Assembly (NCBI GenBank): GCA_963733375.1
Contig: CAVTDB010000020.1
Span: 2,467-66,466, forward strand
Direction: 5' to 3'
DNA length: 64,000 bases
DNA from: Nitrospirota bacterium
GTDB lineage: Bacteria > Nitrospirota > JACRHJ01
In this document: positions 265 to 19,757 of the stretch, one piece after another
Position numbering within the stretch: the stretch's first letter is position 1
Layout of the letters: every line of letters starts with the position of its first letter
Translations under genes and position numbers: made by a program
The notes under the pieces: model-generated
What the model saw: only the letters and a program-made list of their open reading frames with translations
What the model was told of the DNA's origin: nothing
Database searches by the model: none

Positions 265-2148
265 ATGGCATATCTTGACAGCATCGGCTCCCCTGCGGAC
301 CTCAAGGCGCTTAAGCCGAGGGACCTTCCGCTGCTGGCGGAAGAGATACGAGAAGAGATAATCGCGGTCTGTTCCGTAAACGGAGGCCATCTGGCCTCGT
401 CCCTGGGCGTCGTGGAACTCGCCCTCGCACTGCACTATGTCTACGATACCCCCGCGGACAAGATAATCTGGGACGTGGGCCACCAGGCATATGCCCATAA
501 ACTCCTCACCGGGAGGCGCGACCGTTTCGGGACGATCAGGCGCGAAGGCGGCTTAAGCGGCTTCCCCAAGCGCTCGGAGAGCCCATACGACCCGTTCGAC
601 GTCGGTCACTCCAGCACGTCGATATCGGCGGCGCTCGGCATGGCTGTCGCGCGGGACATGGAGGGCGGCGGTTTCAAAATTGCCGCGGTAATAGGCGACG
701 GTTCGATGACCGCGGGACTGGCGTTCGAGGGGATGAACCAGGCCGGACACCTGGAGCGGGACCTGGTCGTCGTATTAAACGACAACGAGATGTCGATCTC
801 CACGAACGTCGGGGCGCTGTCGAACTACCTAAGCCGCATCATCACCGGCGTCAAGGCGGAGAAGCTGAGGCGCGAGACGGAGCAGTTCGTGAAGAAGCTC
901 CCGAAGGTGGCCGAGCAGATGTTCAAAGTCGCCTCGAAGACCGGCGAGAGGATGAAGGGAATTTTTTTGCCCGGCATGCTCTTCGAAGAGATGGGCTTCT
1001 CCTACATCGGCCCGATAGACGGCCACGATATAAAGATGCTGACGGAAGCATTGAGGGACGCTCGTGACAGGAAGGGCGCGGTGCTCGTGCACGTTATGAC
1101 CAAGAAGGGCAAGGGCTACGAGTTTGCCGAGAACGACCCGACCGCGTTCCACGGCACGCCTCCCTTCGACGTGGAGTCGGGCGAGGCCGCGGCGTCCGGC
1201 GGGGGCGTATCCTATACAGGCGTATTCGGCGGGGCGCTGGTAGAGCTTGCAAGAGAAGACCCGTCGATAATAGCCGTAACCGCCGCCATGCCGGAAGGGA
1301 CCGGACTCTCCAAATTCGCGAAAGAGTTCCCTGACAGGTTTTTCGACGTCGGCATCGCAGAACAGCACGCCCTGACTTTCTCATGCGGGCTGGCCGCATG
1401 CGGCATGAAGCCGGTAGTCGCCGTCTATTCCACCTTTATGCAGCGGGCATACGACCAGGTCGTGCACGACATATGCATGCAGAACCTGTCGGTCCTGATG
1501 GCGATGGACAGGGCCGGGGTCGTGGGCGAGGACGGCGAAACCCATCAGGGGCTATTCGACATATCCTTCATGAGGAACGTGCCCAATTTGGTATTCATGG
1601 CGCCGAAAGACGAAAACGAGCTGAGGCACATGCTTTTCACGGGACTGAAATTAAACTGCCCGGTTGCGCTGCGCTACCCGCGCGGCAAAGGCCTGGGCGT
1701 ACCGCTAGACCGCGAATTTCAGGAGATTCCGCTGGGCAGGGCGGAGGTGATAAGCGAAGGCCTGGAGCTGTGCATAATCGCCATCGGAAACACGGTGCAT
1801 CCGGCGGTCCTGGCGGCGGACGAACTGTCGAAATCCGGCTGCCAGACCGGCGTGATTAACGCGAGGTTCATAAAACCGATAGACAAAGACGCCATCATCC
1901 GCGCCGCAACGACTTCCAAACGGATCCTCACCGTGGAGGAAAACGTACTCGCGGGCGGCTTCGGGAGCGCGGTGCTCGAGGTGCTCGAGGAGGCGGGTAT
2001 AAACGTGCCGGTGAAGCGCATCGGCGTCCCGGACATTTATGTCGAGCAGGGGACCCAGGCGCAGATACGGCGCAGGCTGGGGCTTGACGCAAGAGGCATA
2101 TTCGAAGCGGCGGAGGCTTTCGTCTCGGAAAAAGTTCTGGCGGAATAG
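265..2148 (+). CDS. dxs: 1-deoxy-D-xylulose-5-phosphate synthase
   Basis: Intact 627-aa ORF with the TPP-binding motif IGDGSMTAGLAFEGMNQA and a transketolase-like middle and C-terminal region. Typical Dxs length and N-terminus (LDSIGSPADLK). Confidence 0.97.
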   Translation: MAYLDSIGSPADLKALKPRDLPLLAEEIREEIIAVCSVNGGHLASSLGVVELALALHYVYDTPADKIIWDVGHQAYAHKLLTGRRDRFGTIRREGGLSGFPKRSESPYDPFDVGHSSTSISAALGMAVARDMEGGGFKIAAVIGDGSMTAGLAFEGMNQAGHLERDLVVVLNDNEMSISTNVGALSNYLSRIITGVKAEKLRRETEQFVKKLPKVAEQMFKVASKTGERMKGIFLPGMLFEEMGFSYIGPIDGHDIKMLTEALRDARDRKGAVLVHVMTKKGKGYEFAENDPTAFHGTPPFDVESGEAAASGGGVSYTGVFGGALVELAREDPSIIAVTAAMPEGTGLSKFAKEFPDRFFDVGIAEQHALTFSCGLAACGMKPVVAVYSTFMQRAYDQVVHDICMQNLSVLMAMDRAGVVGEDGETHQGLFDISFMRNVPNLVFMAPKDENELRHMLFTGLKLNCPVALRYPRGKGLGVPLDREFQEIPLGRAEVISEGLELCIIAIGNTVHPAVLAADELSKSGCQTGVINARFIKPIDKDAIIRAATTSKRILTVEENVLAGGFGSAVLEVLEEAGINVPVKRIGVPDIYVEQGTQAQIRRRLGLDARGIFEAAEAFVSEKVLAE

Positions 2149-2180
2149 CTTGTTTTAACAGAATATAAAGCGGGGTAAAA

Positions 2181-2723
2181 ATGGGTAAGAAAGATTTTGA
2201 ATCGTTCCTGAAAAAACAAGAGTTAGAAAAGAAAGACGAAACTACAGTTGATTGGGAGAAGGAAAAAAAAGGGTGGCTTGAGTATCTTAATCAATTTTAT
2301 GAATTGATTGAAAATTTTTTAACAAGTTATGTAGAAAGAAAAAAAATATCCCTTACATTTAATACAGAATTTTTATTTGAAGAAAATATTGGCGAATACG
2401 AGGTTAAAAGTTTATCTTTGACTATCGGAAATCAGAAAATCTATTTCAAACCGATTGGGACTCTATTAATTGGTGCAAAAGGAAGAGTTGATATGGAGGG
2501 ACCGGTCGGGACAATAAAATTTGTTCTTGTAGATAAAGAATCTACAGGCATTTCTATAAGAGTAAAAATTTATGAAGGCGGGAAAATTCCTACCGAAGAA
2601 AAAGAGACGAATAAAAAAATTAATTGGGTATGGAAAATAGCCACTCCGCCTCCGAGTATTAAATATATTGAATTGAATGAGAATTCTTTTTTTGACGCCT
2701 TAATGAGCGTAATTAATGGCTAA
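2181..2723 (+). CDS. hypothetical protein, first gene of the AT-rich two-gene cassette
   Basis: 180-aa Lys/Glu/Asn-rich ORF with codon usage unlike the flanks. It starts 32 nt after the dxs stop and overlaps the next ORF by 8 nt (ATGGCTAA). N-terminal half reads as helical, C-terminal half as beta-rich. I recognise no motif. Confidence 0.6.
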   Translation: MGKKDFESFLKKQELEKKDETTVDWEKEKKGWLEYLNQFYELIENFLTSYVERKKISLTFNTEFLFEENIGEYEVKSLSLTIGNQKIYFKPIGTLLIGAKGRVDMEGPVGTIKFVLVDKESTGISIRVKIYEGGKIPTEEKETNKKINWVWKIATPPPSIKYIELNENSFFDALMSVING

Positions 2724-3255
2724 AGAAAGAATAAGTTTTTCAAAACAAAATTTAGAGCTATCGGAAATCGTGGAATATTATTTAGATAGCGAGGCGGCTT
2801 TAAAGAAATATTATCCAATCACAGGAAAGACAGATACTCTCATAGAAAAATTTATACTTTATACAAAAGATGAAATTATAAAAGAATTTAAAAAAAGAGT
2901 GGATGAATTAGACAAAACATCCTCGCTAACTATATTAACTAGCGTGGAAGCAAAATTTAGAATAGATTATTTGAATAGATGCTATAAAAGAAAAAAGGAT
3001 CCTTTATCACTTGAATTACGAGATTTATATAAAATAAAAGAAAATCACGCATCACTTGAAGACGAGATTCTCGTATTTTGGAAAAAACATTTTCCGGACT
3101 ATAAAGGACTGTTCTCCGAAATCATTGGTGCGCTAAAATATAGACATTGGATAGCGCATGGTCGTTATTGGTATCCTAAATTAGGAAGAAAATTTGATTA
3201 TACTTATATTTATTCCCTAGCAGTTCAACTTACATCACTTCCCTTTGAAGACTAG
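2716..3255 (+). CDS. HEPN-like (Rx4H motif) protein, candidate RNase toxin or Abi effector
   Basis: 179-aa AT-rich ORF. R143-H-W-I-A-H148-G (KYRHWIAHGRYW, nt 3142-3159) fits the HEPN Rx4-6H / RxxxAHG catalytic signature near the C-terminus. Its size resembles stand-alone Abi-type HEPN proteins. The assignment rests on the motif only. Confidence 0.5.
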   Translation: MAKERISFSKQNLELSEIVEYYLDSEAALKKYYPITGKTDTLIEKFILYTKDEIIKEFKKRVDELDKTSSLTILTSVEAKFRIDYLNRCYKRKKDPLSLELRDLYKIKENHASLEDEILVFWKKHFPDYKGLFSEIIGALKYRHWIAHGRYWYPKLGRKFDYTYIYSLAVQLTSLPFED

Positions 3256-3272
3256 TTTATAAAAAATGTGCT

Positions 3273-4016
3273 TTGAAAGAAGTTAAAAACAGGCTGGACG
3301 TTGAGATGGCCGCACGCGGGCTGGCCGATTCCCGGCAGAAAGCACAGGCCCTGATACTCGCCGGACAGGTAATCGTTGACGGCAGGAAAGCGGTCAAGGC
3401 GGGAGAGCCGGTCGCCGGGGAAGCGATAATCGAGGTCATAGAGGGCCTGCCTTACGTCTCGCGCGGCGGGCTGAAGCTTAAGGCCGCGCTGGATAATTTT
3501 AAAATTTCTGTCGCCGGGCTGACATGCGCGGACATAGGCGCATCAACCGGCGGCTTTACCGACTGCCTCCTTAAAGAGGGGGCAAAAAAGGTTTATTCGG
3601 TAGATGTCGGCTACGGGCTGATAGACCAGGGCCTGAGGGGCGACCCCCGCGTGAGTGTGATCGAGCGGGTAAATTTTCGTCATGCCGGCGCCGGGTTCCT
3701 GGACGAGCTTGTGGATTTCGCCTCCGTGGACGTCTCCTTTATCTCACTGAAGCTCATCCTTCCCCCGATAAACCTGAACTTAAAACCCGGGGGCCTGGTC
3801 GTCGCGCTGGTGAAGCCGCAGTTCGAGGTCGGACGTGAGAGGGTGGGCAAGGGCGGCATCGTGCATGACAAAAGCGCGCGGGAGATGGCCCTCCACGAAA
3901 TTGCCAGGTTTGCAGAGTCGATTGGTTTTAAAGCGCTGGGCCAGATGGAGTCGCCCGTGAGAGGCGCCAAGGGGAACCTGGAGTACCTGCTTTACTTGCA
4001 TAAGGTGCAGCCATGA
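3273..4016 (+). CDS. tlyA: TlyA-family rRNA 2'-O-methyltransferase (S4 domain plus FtsJ fold)
   Basis: S4-like N-terminus (RLDVEMAARGLADSRQKAQALILAGQVIVDG) and SAM-binding GASTGGFTDCLL. TTG start only 17 nt after the cassette stop. Confidence 0.9.
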   Translation: MKEVKNRLDVEMAARGLADSRQKAQALILAGQVIVDGRKAVKAGEPVAGEAIIEVIEGLPYVSRGGLKLKAALDNFKISVAGLTCADIGASTGGFTDCLLKEGAKKVYSVDVGYGLIDQGLRGDPRVSVIERVNFRHAGAGFLDELVDFASVDVSFISLKLILPPINLNLKPGGLVVALVKPQFEVGRERVGKGGIVHDKSAREMALHEIARFAESIGFKALGQMESPVRGAKGNLEYLLYLHKVQP

Positions 4017-4612
4017 TTGAAGAGATAGACGACCAGCTAAACACGGACCTGCCTGAAGACGGGGCGGCGGAGGAAAAAAAATCAGGCCTTGAAGGGGCCC
4101 CTGATTTTGAGACGGATAAGATGCCCGGGGCGGCGCTCGCGGCGATGCGCGCGCGTCAGGAGCGCGAGGAACACGAGCAGCAGGAAGAGGCCCAGGCGCA
4201 TAAGCTGGGCCTTCAGGCGAGGCTTCTCAGGCTTGACGTGGGCGAGCGCTCAAAGCAGGCAAGGCACGGCGAGCAGGAGGCCCGGATGATACTCATCAAG
4301 GACTCAAGCAAGCAGGTCGCGCTCGCCGTGCTCGCTAACCCGAAGCTCACGCTCCATGAAGTGGAGATGATCGCGGCTTCGAGGAACGTGAGCGAAGAGG
4401 TGCTCCGGGAAATAGCCGGGAACAAGGACTGGATAAAATCTTATACCGTAACGCTCGCGCTGGTGAACAACCCGAAGACGCCCGTGCCGATGGGGCTGAC
4501 TTTCCTCCCGAAACTAAGGACGCGCGACCTCCGTTTCGTAGGCAAGAATAAAGGCGTGCCGGAAGTCATCCGCATGTCCGCCAAAAGGCTGGCCGGGACG
4601 CGCACCTTTTAA
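4013..4612 (+). CDS. hypothetical protein (acidic N-terminus, helical-repeat C-terminus)
   Basis: 199-aa ORF with host-like composition. ATGA overlap with the tlyA stop. I recognise no catalytic motif. Confidence 0.55.
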   Translation: MIEEIDDQLNTDLPEDGAAEEKKSGLEGAPDFETDKMPGAALAAMRARQEREEHEQQEEAQAHKLGLQARLLRLDVGERSKQARHGEQEARMILIKDSSKQVALAVLANPKLTLHEVEMIAASRNVSEEVLREIAGNKDWIKSYTVTLALVNNPKTPVPMGLTFLPKLRTRDLRFVGKNKGVPEVIRMSAKRLAGTRTF

Positions 4613-4770
4613 AATTAATCACATTTAATCCGCACGCAAAGAATTTTCAGGCCTTCCGTTTTCCGAAAAAAACACTAAATCTTGTGCACCCATGCTTCCA
4701 GCCGCCTTCTTTTGGTGGATAACTGCCTTTATTACTTGGTAAAAACAAATTTCACCTAATAATTATTTTC

Positions 4771-4799
4771 TTGACAAGCAAATATTTTAAGTATAGTTA
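4771..4799 (+). promoter_or_regulatory. candidate sigma70 promoter for the MerR-like gene and pil operon
   Basis: TTGACA at 4771-4776. The -10 is either TATAGT (4792-4797, 15-nt spacer) or TAGTTA (4794-4799, 17-nt spacer). Lies in a 245-bp AT-rich spacer. Confidence 0.35.
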
Positions 4800-4856
4800 G
4801 TATACCAATACGTATTAAATGGTTAAAACAAATTAATTTTACAAAATGGAAATCAT

Positions 4857-5060
4857 ATGAGCATGATGCGCAGGGACACGGAAAAAAAAATATACAAGAC
4901 CAGGGAAATCTGCGAGCTCTATGACATATCGCGGTCTACACTTTTCAGATGGGAAAACGAAGGGCTCATAACGGGCGTGCAGAGGGACTGGAGGGGCTGG
5001 CGGCTCTATCACGCGGCGAACTTGAAAGAGATAGAGCGGATAATCAAGCAGAAACAGTAA
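4857..5060 (+). CDS. small MerR-type helix-turn-helix DNA-binding protein
   Basis: 67 aa. YKTREICELYDISRSTLFRWENEGLITGVQRDWRGWRLY matches the MerR/excisionase-type HTH pattern. Lies immediately upstream of pilM. Confidence 0.65.
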   Translation: MSMMRRDTEKKIYKTREICELYDISRSTLFRWENEGLITGVQRDWRGWRLYHAANLKEIERIIKQKQ

Positions 5061-10830: not shown

Positions 10831-11820
10831 TTGACCACCATCGGCATCCTGTGTGACCCGCGACCTCAGAAGGTGGGTCAATTTTGGACGCTGTCCAGCA
10901 TAGAAAACATTACTATCATAAGCGATAGCAAAGCTTTTTCTTTGGAGCCTAAATCTACTCAACTCGATCCGTCGGACTTTAAATTCTTGCGTAAATTTTT
11001 AGACGTAACTAAAGCTAATCTGGTTTTTGCCAAAGCTATTGTTATCGTTGAAGGCGATGCTGAAAATATATTGTTACCTATTTTAGCAAAAATATTGAGG
11101 CGAAATTTTTCCGAATATGGCGTATCGATAGTAAATGTTGGTAGTCGAGGGCTTTTCCGATATAGTAAAAGATTTCAACGCAATGATGAGAAAGCCATCC
11201 CAGTCAAAATCGCTTGTGTTGCAGATAGAGATATTATTCCTGATACTGCAAAAGAATATGTAAGGGAAGGGAGCGTTTTTGAATCAGCAACGGATTGCGC
11301 GCAAATCATAACAAGACTAAAAGAGCATGATGCAGGTCCTGTTAAAACATTCATATCTCCAAAGTGGACGTTAGAATATGACCTCGCTTATAGCGGGCTT
11401 GGTAAAGAAGTACACGTAGCAGTTCAGCTTGCAAAAAAATGTAATAATAAGACATTCGATAGAGACGCCACAGAAAAAGAAGCGATTAGCACTTTTAATG
11501 GGTGGCTAGCTCAAGGATTACAAAATGAAGAGCTTGCCGCAAAATTTTTTAAGCCTCTTTATAAAGAAAATCTGTTTCAAAAGCTGAGTCTCAATGTACA
11601 TCCGGCGACGGGGCTTTTTCCCTTCCACGAATTCACACCACGGGGCAGTCTTGTTATTGACTTGATAGAATATAGAGCTATATTTTTCAAACACAAAAAG
11701 GGGATCGTGCCTGATGTTCAATATAAGAAGTCTATCCCTGAAAAAGAGCTCACAAGCCTAAAGAGATATATTGTCGAGCAAATTAAGAAACTTGTAGGGC
11801 CTGTCCGCTATTTTGTGTAA
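10831..11820 (+). pseudogene. OLD-family nuclease relic: Toprim half only, ATPase domain missing
   Basis: LVFAKAIVIVEGDAENILLPILAK and CVADRD are the Toprim E and DxD motifs of OLD/GajA-type nucleases. Homology starts abruptly at about 10895, where composition switches to AT-rich. The first ~20 codons are GC-rich non-homologous read-in. The stop codon lies inside the IS256 inverted repeat. Confidence 0.7.
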
Positions 11821-12689
11821 ATGGTTTTTCGGTTTTATAAAGCCAGCACTCTTTCTTCAAACATTATCGAAAACTGATTCAACGCTGATTTCCAATCCCT
11901 GATTGGCATCGTCCATTTCTTTGCGATGTTAATGAGAGCTAAGTATAGCAGTTTCAGCATGGCCTAGTCATTGGGAAAGTGGCCCCGGTTTTTGGTTACC
12001 TTGCGAAGCGACATATTGAGCGATTCTATCGCGTTGGTCGTGTAGATCACCTTCCGTATCTCAGGCGGATAGGAAAACAGCGGTATGATCCGCTCCCAGT
12101 TGTTCCGCCATGACTTGGCTATGCTCGGATGGGTGGCGTCCCACTTGGCGGCAAAGGCATCGAGGTTAGACTGAGCCTGCTCCATGGTCGGGGCCTGATA
12201 GATCGTCTTCAAGTCTTCGGCCACCTCTTTACGCTGTTTCCAGGACACGTAGTTCAGCCTGTGGCGTACCATGTGGACTATGCAAAGCTGTATCTGGGTA
12301 TTTGGAAAGACCGCCTCGATTGCTTCGGGAAAACCCTTGAGACCGTCCACGCAGGCGATGAAAATATCTTTCACGCCTCGGTTCTTCAGTTCCGTGACCA
12401 CCTGGAGCCAGAACTTGGCGCTCTCGGTCTCGGCCAACCACATTCCGAGGACTTCCTTTTTGCCTTCCATGGTAACGCCTATGCCCAGATAAACGGCCTT
12501 GCACGGTCATCTCGGACTGCATCGCACGCTCTAAAAGCTGCTTTGTGAGTTGCTTGAGAAGCCCGTTCTCACCAATAAGGTCTTCGGGCTTCTTGTAGTC
12601 CTTCATTAACGCATCGAGTAGCTCGTCGGTAGTGGCCATCGGTTCCTCCTTGAGGGTTAAATTTAAACCGATTCTGGCCATTTACACAA
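11815..12689 (-). mobile_element. IS256-family insertion sequence, internally deleted (875 bp)
   Basis: Terminal inverted repeats: GTGTAAATGG...CGGTTT at 11815, and its reverse complement at 12665-12689. Flanking 8-bp direct repeat GCTATTTT (11807-11814) / TCTATTTT (12690-12697), matching at 7 of 8 positions. Boundaries are ambiguous by 2 nt. Confidence 0.75.
11835..12639 (-). pseudogene. IS256-family (Mutator-type) transposase pseudogene
   Basis: The N-terminus [45 protein letters not shown] is fused out of frame, at about 12498-12505, to ...[61 protein letters not shown]. The central ~200 aa are missing. There is an in-frame TAG at 11964-11966 ([29 protein letters not shown]). Confidence 0.85.
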
Positions 12690-15734: not shown

Positions 15735-17741
15735 TCAGACATACGAGGCGAGCTTTGCCTCGTATTCGGTTAGCCAGCTTCTTTCATCAGGGCTTAAGTC
15801 CTGCCTGCTTCTGAGGGCAAGGTACTTGTCATAGTCGGATTTATACAGCCCATTGCTTTTTGTTTTTTTACTTCTTACAATCCCGTCGGCAACCGACAAA
15901 TGACTTACGGCAAGCTTTGCCTCCAGTGCCTCGACGTGCTCCGCTATCCTGGGAACTGTTGGCACAATCTCATGCCAGGGCAGGACCGCATCCTTGGAGG
16001 CGTCCTTGGCCATTTTAACGACCTTTAAAGTCTGGCGTTTAAGGGACCGTTTCCTTCGGATGCCTTCCTTCACCGCGTCCATAGTCACCGGGTTGCCGGT
16101 AAGCTTTGCCATCGGGTGTACAGGCTCGACCAGCTTAGCCGAGCAGAGGTACTCGCCTCTTATGTGTGTAAACGAACACCTGAGATAAATCGAAGAAGCT
16201 GTACCGTATGCGGACTTTGTCTCGTAAACCGTAAAGGGCCTCGTGGAAGTATTCGTTGCCGAGGAACCTGATGCCGTTCCTGCCGATGGAGGCCGTCTCA
16301 ACGGACAACATCAGGTAATCCAGCTCGCGGGCATTTATTCCATTACCACGTCCTGCATTAAGGACTTCGCCCGGTGTACGCCCATTGAGGCCGCCGTGTG
16401 GCTGTGTCCGGTAATATTCCCGCCACTTGCCTATCATGGCCATTGCCTCCGGTATTGTGGGCACCCAGTCATTATGCAGGCTCTTGAGGAATTTTTCGTT
16501 CCGTTTCATGTAGCCGGGTTTATCCTCTATTGAAGCGCCGGTAAACGAGGGCATGAGCCTTTCAAACGAGTCGGAGAAAGTCCCGAAGAAGCGCTCAATG
16601 GGTTTACTCTGCGCGTTATACGGCCAGGCAAAGGACGTAATAATGCCGAGCCTCGCAAACATCCCGTAAAAGCCGCACTCCTCAAAGCTCGGACTCGCTT
16701 GTGAAATACCTTCGCCTTGAACGCCTTGCCGTTATCGAGCAGGGCTGCCTTCGGGAACTTACCAAGCTCCAGGACCGCATTACGGAGGGCACCGGCAACG
16801 GCCTGTATGTTTTCCTCGACCATAATCTCGTAGCCTAACAAGTCACGGCTTGCCCAGTCGTAGAAACCAACGAGTACGGCACGGCAAGGTTTTCCGGTAT
16901 ATGGGTTTATCACCTGAAAATTGAGCCTGTGGCCGTCGGCGACCAGGACGTCGCCGACATCAAGCAGGGACGAATCACGCTTCAGGAACGGGAGCACCTT
17001 GTCGTTTAGGGCCTTCTCGCCCTCACGGAGCGCAATCCACAGGTCATAATGACGCTTCTTGAAGTTATCGACAAACCGGCGAAGGGTCATGCCTGATGAA
17101 GGGGAGGGGAGGCCACGGCGCTCTAAGATATACTTTGTCAGCTTTATAGCCGTCTCGACCTTGACCTGGTTCTGGTGCAGGAGCTGCGTAAGGAGCAGGT
17201 TGGCCTCGTCTTCGGTGACCTTCGACCTCTCACCTTGCTTATTGGTGGGTCCCGGGGCCAGGACACGGTAATCGCTGTCCCCGTCCTTATATGCCTTCTC
17301 CCACCGGTAAAGTGTCCCGCGCGAGATGGTGCCCAGAATCTTGAATATCTCCGGAAGCAGATGGCCGGTATTGTATGAGAGCAGGAAACAGCCCAAGGCG
17401 TCTCCGATACTACCTGATGCGATAGCTATCTCCTTGTCCTTGTGCCAGGCAGCAAGCAGGTCGGCACGAGCAAGTGCCGATTTCTCGGTCCGGGCGGGCA
17501 GGTGCCTTTTATCGGCTGCGCATATATTGGAGGGATGGGGCTGGTCTGTTTTACATTTAAGGTAGTTGTCTTGAACTTCGGGAGGGAGGGCGGAGAGAGG
17601 GATCAGGTACTTCCAGCCCGATGTGCCACGAGGGACTTTCTCGGCTGGAAGTTTTTCCAGGCTGATGAGCCTCTGGACCGACCTGACCGTTATGCCCAGG
17701 AGGTCGGCTGCCTCGGTAATCTCAACTCTTGAAGCTTCCAT
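15735..17741 (-). CDS. Mu-like DDE transposase (about 669 aa) with two frame breaks
   Basis: N-terminal HTH (ITEAADLLGITVRSVQRL). DDE triad candidates are LVADGHRLNF, LLDNGKAFK and SKPIERFFGT. The three track ORFs 16527-17741, 16135-16662 and 15735-16301 join with shifts near 16690 and 16170. Confidence 0.8.
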
Positions 17742-17828: not shown

Positions 17829-17957
17829 TTTGCGACAAGCGGAGATTGCTGCATTAGCAAAAAGGTTCATTGATTTAAAGGGAGTTCGCTAAGTGGCTTT
17901 TTGTGTCGCGACAGATGTCGCGATAATGTCGCAACATGGCTGAATATTGCGACGCAG
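17829..17957. repeat. phased palindromic repeat array (TGTCGCGACA-type): candidate operator or transposase-binding sites
   Basis: TGTCGCGACA (17904-17913, perfect palindrome), TGTCGCGATA (17916-17925) and TGTCGCAACA (17927-17936), spaced 11-12 bp apart. Half-sites TGCGACA (17831-17837) and TGCGACG (17948-17954). Lies 90-215 bp upstream of the transposase start. Confidence 0.6.
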
Positions 17958-18401
17958 GGTTTTAAAGGCTAATCGGCAAAAGGCAAAAAAAATAAATAGG
18001 TTGGCGAGTTATGAGGGCATGACAAAATCTCAAACCAAATGGCAGGAACTGACCCGAAATGGCCGGTCAATCTCGCGCTTAAAAAATCCACGCAAGAGGC
18101 CAGTGAATTTGTTTATTCCCAAAGAGGCAACTCATTTTATCTAATGAAATCTTATTGCGCCTGATGAAATTCCCAAATGATTTCAAAATAATGCCAATTA
18201 AATTCCAGTATGGTTTTGGGAGGGTTTTGGGATGGTTTTTTGAGAGCGAGTTGTCGAGATTTCAAAGACTTCAATCTCACCCCCCCTGTCAATTTATATC
18301 CATAAAAGTGGAAGCGGCGTCATTCTATAGGGTTTTTCCCGGTTTGTTAATTAATTTCTTTTAAGAAGTATGTAGTTTGCTTCACAGGGTTGTGTAACAG
18401 C

Positions 18402-19757
18402 TTACCCAATCCCGTAATCCTTTATCTTTGTCAGGAGAGTTTTGTAGCTCACCCCCAAAAGCTCCGAGGCCCGGCTTTTGTTCCCGCCGCAGGAGCGAAG
18501 GACCCCCTTTATCGCCTCTATCTCGGCGGCCTTTGCCGCAAGCGAGGCCGTCCTCTGGAGTCCGCCGGACGTCTCTTCATCCGTGCGCGCCGTCCGGCCC
18601 AGGTCCTCCAGCCCTATCTCGTCCGTGTCCGCGATTATGACCGCCCTCTCGATGCAGTTCTCCAGTTCCCGCACGTTCCCCTTCCACTCCATGTGCGAAA
18701 GCGCGTCTATTGCTTCACTCGAAAACTGAAGACGTCCTTTATTCAGCTCCGTCCCGTATATTTTCAGGAAATGCTTTGCAAGCAGAGGTATATCTTCCCG
18801 CCTCTCGCGGAGCGGCGGGATATGCACCGGGAACACGTTCAGGCGGTAGTACAGGTCTTCCCGGAACTTGCCCTCCGAGACGGCCCTGTTAAGGTCCCTG
18901 TTGCTGGCCGCGGCGACCCGGACGTCCACCGAAAAAGGCTCGGCGCCCCCCACGCGCTCTATCATCTCGCCCTGGAGCGCCCGGAGGAGCTTCGCCTGGA
19001 GGATAGGGTCCATCTCTCCCACCTCGTCCAGGAAAAGCGTCCCCTTGTCCGCCAGCTCGAACTTGCCCATCCGTCTTGCGTCGGCCCGGTGAAGGAGCCC
19101 TTCTCGTGCCCGAACAGCTCGGATTCAAGGAGGTCCTTCGGGATCGCGGCGCAGTTGACCGCCACGAACGGGTTGTCCTTCCTGGGCGAGAGGTGGTGCA
19201 GGGCCTTGGCAAAAAGCTCCTTGCCCGTGCCCGACTCGCCGGTTATCAGGACCGTCGCCCTGGTCGGCGCGGCCTTCTTCAGGAGTTCGAGCGCGTCCAT
19301 GAGCGGCTTGCTTTTTCCGACAAGCTTCGGAAACGACAGCTCCTGGGCGAATTCCTCCCTGCAGCACGAGGTTATCCGCCGCCAGCTTCCCGCTCTCCAG
19401 GGCCTTTTCCACCAGCGCAAGCATATGCGAGATGTCGAACGGCTTGGTCAGGAAGTCGTACGCGCCCGCCTTTACCGCCTTGACCGCCGTCTCTATGCTC
19501 CCGAACGCGGTCATCATTATGACCGGCAGCAGGGGCTTCTTCTCCTTGAGGGTCTTCAACACCTGAAGGCCGCTCATGCCGGGGAGCTTCAGGTCGGTCA
19601 GCACCAGGTCCGCGCCTTCCCGGAGCACTCTGGCTACTCCCTCCTCGCCCGTCCCGGACGTCAGGGCATGGTAGCCTTCGGCCTCGAAGGTCTTGGCGAG
19701 CATCTCCGCCATCGACTTCTTGTCCTCTATAATCAGTATCCTGAACTTCTCCGCCAT
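18402..19757 (-). CDS. sigma54-dependent NtrC-family response regulator (REC-AAA+-Fis HTH), two frame breaks
   Basis: REC domain ([15 protein letters not shown]...[14 protein letters not shown]...MMTAFGS), [13 protein letters not shown](A) and a C-terminal HTH. The breaks fall at C/G runs, about 19357-19359 and 19085-19087. The kinase gene lies immediately upstream. Proximity to the pil genes suggests it could be PilR-like; that is inference only. Confidence 0.85.

Follow-up and report, generated by a model that had tools for sequence, protein, structure and literature searches.

Among described toxin-antitoxin (TA) systems, HEPN-type toxins are found in HepT-MntA (HEPN/MNT), a type VII system exemplified by SO_3166/SO_3165 of Shewanella (PMC7641770), and in RnlA-RnlB and LsoA-LsoB, type II systems in which an HEPN ribonuclease (RNase) toxin is paired with an unrelated protein antitoxin (PMC8266594). 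TA and small defence systems are also encoded by integron cassettes, such as Esos and Taranis of the Vibrio cholerae superintegron (10.1101/2024.07.02.601686). We assessed how these systems compare with a pair of open reading frames (ORFs), ORF1 and ORF2, that lies between dxs and tlyA in a 64,000-nucleotide (nt) stretch of a Nitrospirota genome (contig CAVTDB010000020.1; this whole stretch is hereafter the window). We found that the cassette carrying the pair is a recent, horizontally acquired insertion placed precisely between dxs and tlyA, and that ORF1-ORF2 is a tightly coupled unit conserved across phyla. Judged by its sequence motifs, ORF2 is likely a member of the HEPN superfamily, and we put the chances at a little better than even that the pair is a TA-like cassette, promoterless at this site, in which an HEPN RNase, ORF2, would be neutralised by ORF1.

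The insertion was resolved by comparison with a metagenome contig, L087, which encodes a TlyA 94% identical to that of the window. Nucleotide identity between the two was 95% across dxs (588..2471 in L087), 93% across tlyA and 93% across the next gene. At the L087 junction the dxs stop codon is followed by six nucleotides (CCGGAT) and then by tlyA, which begins TTG AAA GAA GCT AAA AAC AGG, with no dip in guanine-plus-cytosine (GC) content; in the window, 1124 nt stand in place of these six. GC content, profiled in steps of 200 nt, was 0.58–0.65 in dxs, 0.25–0.35 across 2150–3270 and ~0.6 again by 3300, and the cassette as a whole had a GC content of 0.31 compared with 0.56–0.60 in the flanks, 27 points lower. 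The same filled junction was present, identical, in a second public sample (L006). More distant relatives with dxs before tlyA had gaps of only −37 to +150 nt between the two genes, which indicates that a short junction is the norm.

A first-pass annotation, made from the letters of the window, had described a foreign, precise insertion with a GC drop over 2149–3272, and both points were borne out by the empty site and the GC profile; its gene coordinates, the 8-nt ORF overlap, the 32- and 17-nt spacers and the TTG start at 3273 were exact. Two of its further suggestions did not hold. The 5′ end of tlyA had been thought to be remodelled by the insertion, but the empty site has the same TTG, so this start is ancestral and the 5′ end is unaltered. 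A possible flanking repeat was not real: the comparison with L087 identified its right copy, GTTAAAAACAG, as native tlyA coding sequence and therefore not as a target-site duplication, and the borders in the window had no convincing direct repeat, inverted repeat or target-site duplication. The insertion has nonetheless left tlyA without its native upstream context. A purine run resembling a Shine-Dalgarno sequence lies close upstream of tlyA in the empty site and is now 1.1 kb distant, such that tlyA translation may be affected, and transcripts from the dxs side would have to traverse the cassette before reaching tlyA.

No terminator-like site was found between the cassette and either neighbour, dxs or tlyA. 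No promoter-like site was placed to serve ORF1 either, as had been read from the sequence in the first-pass annotation; the sole match at the left border (2155–2182) overlaps the ORF1 start codon, and the leader is too short to hold a promoter of its own. Because the cassette has neither signal, it is probably transcribed by read-through of the dxs-tlyA operon. The leader has a Shine-Dalgarno-like GGGG 5 nt before the ORF1 ATG, and the overlap ATGGCTAA implies that translation of ORF2 may be coupled to that of ORF1 (Table 1). The closest relative of the window cassette (L001, with an ORF2 62% identical) shares with it a 9-mer, TTGTTTTAA, located 5′ of ORF1 (2150–2158 in the window and about 5210 in L001) at distances from the ORF1 ATG that differ between the two (about −31 in the window and −55 in L001); it may have arisen by chance, both stretches being AT-rich, or be a leftover of a common cassette border.

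Table 1 Positions of the cassette genes, motifs, borders and flanking genes in the window.
Feature	Position	Strand	Remarks
dxs (1-deoxy-D-xylulose-5-phosphate synthase)	265..2148	+	Pfam DXP_synthase_N E = 4e-121, also Transket_pyr and Transketolase_C; left flank of insertion
Left border of inserted DNA and ORF1 5′ leader	2149..2180	+	32 nt from dxs stop
ORF1	2181..2723	+	180 aa, isoelectric point (pI) 5.5; proposed antitoxin or neutralising partner
ORF1/ORF2 overlap, 8 nt	2716..2723	+	ATGGCTAA; ORF2 start inside ORF1 end
ORF2	2716..3255	+	179 aa, pI 8.9, all-alpha; proposed HEPN-superfamily RNase toxin
Codons for E78-A-K-F-R82	2947..2961	+	E-x3-[KR] motif; in long helix of the predicted ORF2 model
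Codons for R143-H-W-I-A-H148	3142..3159	+	Rx4H putative catalytic motif; end of helix 127–147
Right border of inserted DNA, 17 nt	3256..3272	+	no attC, hairpin or terminator
tlyA-like ribosomal RNA methyltransferase	3273..4016	+	Pfam FtsJ E = 1.8e-40 and S4; TTG start; right flank

We assessed whether the pair recurs elsewhere using database searches with both proteins. An exhaustive search recovered at least 1188 ORF2 representatives at 50% identity (E ≤ 1e-3), all of them single-domain proteins of ~175–185 aa, compared with 58 matches in a word-indexed search, and ORF1 had at least 283 homologues; these large numbers indicate that both are real genes. The source name of every homologue of either protein was "hypothetical protein", also in RefSeq. 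Scans of Pfam, NCBIfam, PADLOC and PHROGs gave no match to ORF1 or ORF2, in keeping with the earlier suggestion of a new pairing, and literature searches (Klebsiella protein accessions; HEPN/PH-domain antitoxins) returned no description of the pair.

The arrangement of the two genes was scored in 80 loci, taken from a scan with the ORF1 alignment (and thus seeded on ORF1) at one genome per species. The loci came from Desulfobacterota, Acidobacteriota, Gamma-, Beta- and Alphaproteobacteria, Binatia, Spirochaetota, Bacillota (relatives of Geobacillus and Anoxybacillus), Cyanobacteria, Campylobacterota, Caldisericota and others, and the pair spans at least ten phyla. Both genes were intact and adjacent in 58 loci, while an intact ORF1 stood beside an ORF2 that was frameshifted, truncated, interrupted by a stop or absent in 16; the reverse, a broken ORF1 with an intact ORF2, occurred once, both genes were broken once, and four loci were cut by a contig end. 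Where ORF2 was missing, no substitute gene was found downstream, and partner swapping was rejected because nothing takes its place. The same 8-nt overlap (ATGnnTAA/TAG/TGA) was present in 30 of 57 scored loci, and most others overlapped by 4–14 nt. Seeding on ORF2 instead, in 11 loci on IMG/VR viral contigs, gave an intact ORF1 directly 5′ of ORF2 in all 10 that were evaluable, so that ORF2 was never seen without ORF1. Pairwise distances of the two proteins co-varied (55 loci; Mantel r = 0.75, p = 0.001), and together with the 58 intact loci this confirms the tight coupling that the first-pass annotation had proposed. Cassette GC content was below that of the flanks in 39 of 39 loci (median difference 7.5 points), and the distribution was patchy across phyla, with presence and absence differing between close relatives.

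Column conservation of ORF2 was computed on 138 diverse representatives (50% identity). The only invariant columns were R143, A147, H148 and G149, and the spacing between R143 and H148 was exactly four in all 138 (R-x4-H). Position 144 was H in 106 relatives, N in 21 and D in 11, with nothing else observed, and W145, R150 and Y151 were nearly invariant. Upstream, E78 was conserved in 136 of the 138, and position 82 was R in 102, K in 15 (R/K in 117 of 138) and Q in 10. HEPN active sites are defined by Rx4-6H, by N, D or H after the arginine, and by an upstream acidic E-x3-[KR] in helix 2 that provides an auxiliary acidic active-site residue (PMC3710099), and the ORF2 family has all three of these sequence features (Rx4H, H/N/D after Arg, and E-x3-[KR]). 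The AlphaFold2 (AF2) model of ORF2 (predicted local distance difference test, pLDDT, 89; predicted template modelling score, pTM, 0.83) was all-alpha, with E78–R82 inside a long helix (51–91) and R143–H148 closing helix 127–147, followed by a loop and a last helix (162–172).

Profile and structure searches of ORF2 returned HEPN families and chains at sub-threshold levels. HEPN families headed the recurrent weak Pfam matches, with HEPN_RiboL-PSP (PF18735) matched by 12 of 138 members (best E = 3.9e-4) and HEPN_MAE_28990 (PF18737) by 2 of 138 (best E = 1.1e-4), and with one member aligning to PF18737 over residues 22–153 (132 residues, near full length), and another, next-listed Pfam family matched 3 of 138. 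The window ORF2 and the family consensus matched neither PF18735 nor PF18737, and a Pfam scan of consensus sequences and "R-N" motif variants did not recover PF18735 among 17 members, with only P0240 matching PF18737. Comparison by hhalign with a HepT/DUF86 alignment, built from the toxin adjoining an MNT gene on a Klebsiella plasmid, gave a single weak match (E = 0.053) that set YRHWIAHGRYW opposite MRNRMAHG-YF. Seven of the 31 top weak Foldseek matches of the ORF2 model in the PDB were HEPN chains (7ae8, 7ae9, 4nqf, 3jrt, 6m6u), all at E > 1 and with a template modelling (TM) score of ~0.3, and PDB sequence-profile searches, which covered ORF1 as well as ORF2 (alignments A1, A3 and A2), produced only spurious coiled-coil or designed-protein matches. 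The R143-H-W-I-A-H148-G run at nt 3142–3159, from which the first-pass annotation had proposed an HEPN RNase, is therefore upheld at the level of motifs, with R143 and H148 invariant in the 138 relatives, but is not accompanied by a significant profile or fold match. As a separate observation, the HepT (DUF86) gene beside an annotated MNT nucleotidyltransferase in L117 (3147–3629, minus strand; NZ_CP072469.1) has an aberrant C-terminal extension; the HepT-MNT locus is bordered by IS26, and the HepT gene is not in the PLSDB gene table.

In the AF2 model of ORF1 (pLDDT 84), a helical hairpin at the N terminus precedes about seven beta strands, among which a disordered charged linker intervenes, and a helix forms the C terminus. 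Its alignment has two conserved blocks, PIGTxLIGAKGRVD and WKIATPPP, and four invariant polar residues, E67, T94, K152 and T155. The first-pass annotation recognised nothing in this protein, and we likewise found nothing significant in Pfam, NCBIfam, PADLOC, PHROGs or the PDB: no sequence-profile match was obtained in the libraries or the PDB, and Foldseek of the model against the PDB and BFVD gave none at E ≤ 0.001. PH domains recurred at the top of both weak Foldseek lists, which offers a lead, and only a lead, that the predicted fold may be PH-like. The ORF1 alignment lacked the GSX10DXD nucleotidyltransferase motif and had no nucleotidyltransferase or MNT match in Pfam. Median pI was 5.4 for ORF1 and 8.9 for ORF2.

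We also assessed which replicons carry the pair. It was present on 3.7–4.7 kb non-mobilisable ColE1-type plasmids of Klebsiella and Raoultella, as one of about six genes and with its own promoter-like region and terminator hairpin, and on 135–177 kb IncFIB plasmids. One small plasmid, p6 of Klebsiella quasipneumoniae (L116; NZ_CP092518.1, 4655 bp), is a ColRNAI plasmid with six annotated genes only, rop among them, and encodes the ORF1 and ORF2 homologues WP_064279389 and WP_040173808 at 1746–2856 with an 8-nt overlap; near-identical copies of this pair occur in IncFIB plasmids of clinical isolates, and all are annotated as hypothetical proteins. No GenBank phage carried the pair. Chromosomal copies were usually solitary among housekeeping genes, and several adjoined other TA genes (UPF0175/DUF3368, DUF4258/MqsA, HicB), so a check for the defence-island context that the first-pass annotation had listed found mostly housekeeping genes or other TA pairs. 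In a Desulfobacteraceae metagenome-assembled genome (MAG; L004, 5327–8543 of JAABSZ010000023.1), a NIF3-family gene is apparently split into a 393-aa part and a 66-aa fragment by a DUF4258/MqsA-like TA pair, and ORF1-ORF2 starts 32 nt past the NIF3 fragment, a spacing equal to the 32 nt of the window; the arrangement suggests that small TA cassettes lodged one after another in a housekeeping operon.

An integron cassette has an attC site, an imperfect RYYYAAC ... GTTRRRY hairpin, at its 3′ end and a G|TT core at its 5′ border, and borders of this type were assessed by positional heptamer enrichment and by folding against matched controls. GTTATGC was found 31–58 nt 5′ of ORF1 in 8 of 67 loci (p = 4e-10), and its reverse complement, GCATAAC, at the ORF2 stop in 10 of 67 (p = 7e-17), although the latter signal (position −5) may partly reflect a conserved C-terminal Ala codon followed by TAA. 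The ORF2 TAA was embedded in GCATAAC, of the attC inverse-core type, in L016, L029, L034, L044, L045 and L046, with an obvious hairpin after it in L044 and L045 only. Well-formed attC hairpins were detected in about four clear loci, L023 (z = −8.9), L045 (z = −4.0), L055 and L059, compared with 0 of 60 matched control sites folding at z < −3. Generic attC detectors were set aside: two strict versions, though specific, failed to report sites evident on visual inspection, and a folding-based one was discarded, having given 48 matches compared with 61–72 in shuffled sequence. These results indicate that the family spreads by way of small plasmids, and that a minority of its lineages do so as integron gene cassettes. 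The copy in the window lies between dxs and tlyA and not in a cassette array (no intI search was made in the 64 kb); it has no attC, the 17 nt after ORF2 are unstructured (z = +1.9), and core and inverse-core heptamers are absent from both borders.

Compared with the described systems, the pair resembles HepT-MntA in outline. Both consist of two small co-oriented genes with the neutraliser, as proposed here, encoded first, both have an all-alpha toxin or putative toxin with R-x4-H, A-H-G and a nearby conserved Tyr (RHWIAHGRY in ORF2, RNRMAHGY in HepT), and both are abundant on mobile DNA. They differ in that none of the 138 ORF2 members matched PF01934/DUF86, that ORF2 is ~50 residues longer than HepT, with an extra N-terminal region and inserted helices, and that its Tyr stands one residue further from the His (RX4HXXY, compared with RX4HXY in HepT). 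ORF1 differs from MntA in having neither GSX10DXD nor an MNT Pfam match and in its beta-rich predicted fold, and a type VII, MNT-like mechanism was rejected because the motif is absent. RnlA-RnlB and LsoA-LsoB offer the likeness of an HEPN RNase bound by a dedicated non-enzymatic protein, as proposed for ORF2, and they are plasmid- and chromosome-borne, with TA behaviour linked to anti-phage function. RnlA and LsoA are, however, large, multidomain and encoded first, whereas ORF2 is a single 179-aa domain encoded second, and no sequence similarity of ORF1 or ORF2 to components of either system was detected. The nearest named HEPN clades, PF18735 and PF18737, were reached below gathering thresholds only, and their published descriptions place them in L-PSP fusions or in operons with ParB, ParA or methylases, not with an ORF1-like partner. 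Like integron cassettes, the pair is a compact, promoterless, AT-rich unit, and a subset of its relatives has the G|TTATGC core and GCATAAC inverse core with attC hairpins; unlike this pair, each HEPN cassette described so far consists of one gene, and the "integron cassette HEPN" structure (PDB 3jrt) matched ORF2 only weakly in Foldseek (rank 12, E = 4). As proposed, ORF1-ORF2 would act in the manner of HepT-MntA and RnlA-RnlB, but it belongs to neither, and it probably represents a new HEPN clade, paired with a partner of a new type.

The pair has features of a TA module, namely small, adjacent, co-oriented and co-inherited genes, patchy spread and mobile carriage. We infer RNase activity and toxicity for ORF2 and neutralisation by ORF1. 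In the mechanism that we propose, ORF2 would be a metal-independent HEPN endoribonuclease with R143-x4-H148 as its active site, helped by H144 and E78; ORF1 would be translated first, coupled to ORF2 by the 8-nt overlap, and would hold ORF2 inactive, most likely by direct binding. Once ORF1 is lost, titrated or displaced, whether because the element is lost or because of stress or phage infection, ORF2 would be set free to cut cellular RNA and cause growth arrest. The selected role could be addiction, that is, stabilisation of a plasmid or cassette, or abortive infection, both of which are plausible and not exclusive.

The polarity of the proposed module, with ORF2 as toxin and ORF1 as neutraliser, is favoured by the 16:1 decay ratio, by the absence of any ORF2 without ORF1, and by the charge pattern; orphan antitoxins but no orphan toxins are expected of a type II module, whose toxin can be dispensed with while its antitoxin cannot as long as the toxin is intact. 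The opposite polarity, in which ORF1 would be the toxic effector and ORF2 protective, might be considered given the four invariant polar residues and unassigned fold of ORF1 and the fact that the toxin is encoded first in some TA systems; the decay asymmetry makes it very improbable, and it would also have to accommodate ORF2 never occurring without ORF1 and an acidic ORF1 beside a basic ORF2 with a nuclease-type motif. Several results nevertheless weigh against a TA cassette with an HEPN toxin. No HEPN family was matched at the curated threshold by ORF2 or any of the 138 members, PDB sequence-profile searches with the ORF2 family gave no match, Foldseek of ORF2 against the PDB reached E = 1 at best with none at E ≤ 0.001, and the hhalign match was to a shallow HepT profile. 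Neither ORF1 nor 64 of its relatives had a helix-turn-helix, ribbon-helix-helix, AbrB or Phd-type Pfam match, ORF1 has no recognisable antitoxin domain, and its conservation is close to that of ORF2, an unusual trait in a classical antitoxin; the copy in the window also has no promoter of its own for ORF1 to autoregulate. PADLOC recognises neither protein, and the usual genomic context of the pair is not a defence island. The decay count of the 80 loci has ORF1 as its seed, and long-read MAGs, in which frameshifts may be assembly errors, are the source of some broken ORF2 copies.

The missing HEPN profile and fold match would be in keeping with another reading, in which ORF1 and ORF2 form an obligate complex that is not toxic and serves the cell, for example as an RNA-binding or RNA-processing factor or a regulator, with ORF2 a non-catalytic HEPN-like helical or non-HEPN protein that uses its R-x-W-x-A-H-G block for binding. 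Such a complex would suit partners that are similarly conserved and co-diverge, and a pair that, at this locus, is embedded in a housekeeping operon and apparently co-transcribed with it. We regard this as improbable, as it fits poorly with a patchy distribution in which close relatives differ in presence and absence, with a GC content below that of the host in all 39 loci, with carriage on plasmids and in integron cassettes, with frequent decay of ORF2, and with invariant residues that coincide exactly with the catalytic set of HEPN domains, down to the H/N/D position and E-x3-R/K. Less remote, though still unlikely in our view, is a system of two components for abortive infection or against phages: ORF1 would be a sensor or regulator that restrains the HEPN effector ORF2 and releases or activates it upon a phage component, with defence as the primary function. 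Its mechanism overlaps that of the TA-like cassette, and the trigger and biological role differ. HEPN domains are common effectors in abortive-infection and defence systems (PMC3710099), compact defence systems are known to be harboured by integron cassettes and small plasmids, HEPN-like single-gene cassettes among them (10.1101/2024.07.02.601686; 10.64898/2026.03.17.712381), the well-conserved, structured ORF1 with its invariant residues suits a sensor better than a labile antitoxin, and the pair was found on 11 IMG/VR contigs. Against this stand the lack of a PADLOC match, the absence of the pair from GenBank phages and neighbourhoods in which housekeeping genes or other TA pairs predominate and which are not defence islands; simple TA logic also accounts equally well for the decay asymmetry. 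The first-pass annotation had left the choice between TA and abortive infection open, and the decay asymmetry, the carriage on plasmids and the charge pattern all agree with a reading of this kind.

Other features of the window were noted outside the cassette. A 199-aa ORF (4013–4612) overlaps the tlyA stop and had no Pfam match; it appears to be a native operon member, since it is conserved in place in L087 (93% nucleotide identity). A second AT-rich patch at 4551–5050 (minimum GC content ~0.30), upstream of and overlapping a 67-aa MerR-family ORF (4857..5060), is older than the cassette insertion because L087 has it as well (82% nucleotide identity). Further along, a low-GC stretch (10831–12470) has a 329-aa ORF (10831..11820) with an OLD-like TOPRIM domain only, probably a truncated OLD-family nuclease as no ATPase part was detected, adjoined by Mutator-family transposase fragments (11964..12470, minus strand); the stretch looks to be a further patch of defence DNA, foreign or decayed. 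A 404-aa ORF (16527..17741, minus strand) looks like a transposase given its helix-turn-helix domains and a weak rve integrase-core match, and a low-GC region without clear genes was found at 17901–18450.

Taken together, these results may, though we hold this broader claim only tentatively, describe a TA or defence family that is undescribed and very widespread, with more than 1000 clusters at 50% identity in at least ten phyla and on clinical Klebsiella plasmids. It would pair a new clade of HEPN RNases with a partner of new, possibly PH-like fold, under a control unlike MNT AMPylation or RnlB binding, and would travel on integrons and plasmids while also lodging, without attC, in essential operons and relying on read-through. 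If true, a large unannotated family would be added to the HEPN toxin repertoire, and the unassigned fold of ORF1 could reveal a new control of HEPN RNases. A new HEPN two-gene module is in itself unsurprising, but the size of the family, its presence on clinical plasmids and the filled and empty site make it a good experimental target, and the hypothesis could be tested directly in enterobacteria, since 4.6-kb ColE1-type Klebsiella plasmids carry homologues. The filled and empty sites in close relatives would provide a clean example of a promoterless selfish cassette riding an essential operon, and the family would form a bridge between the cassette pools of integrons, small plasmids and TA loci on chromosomes.

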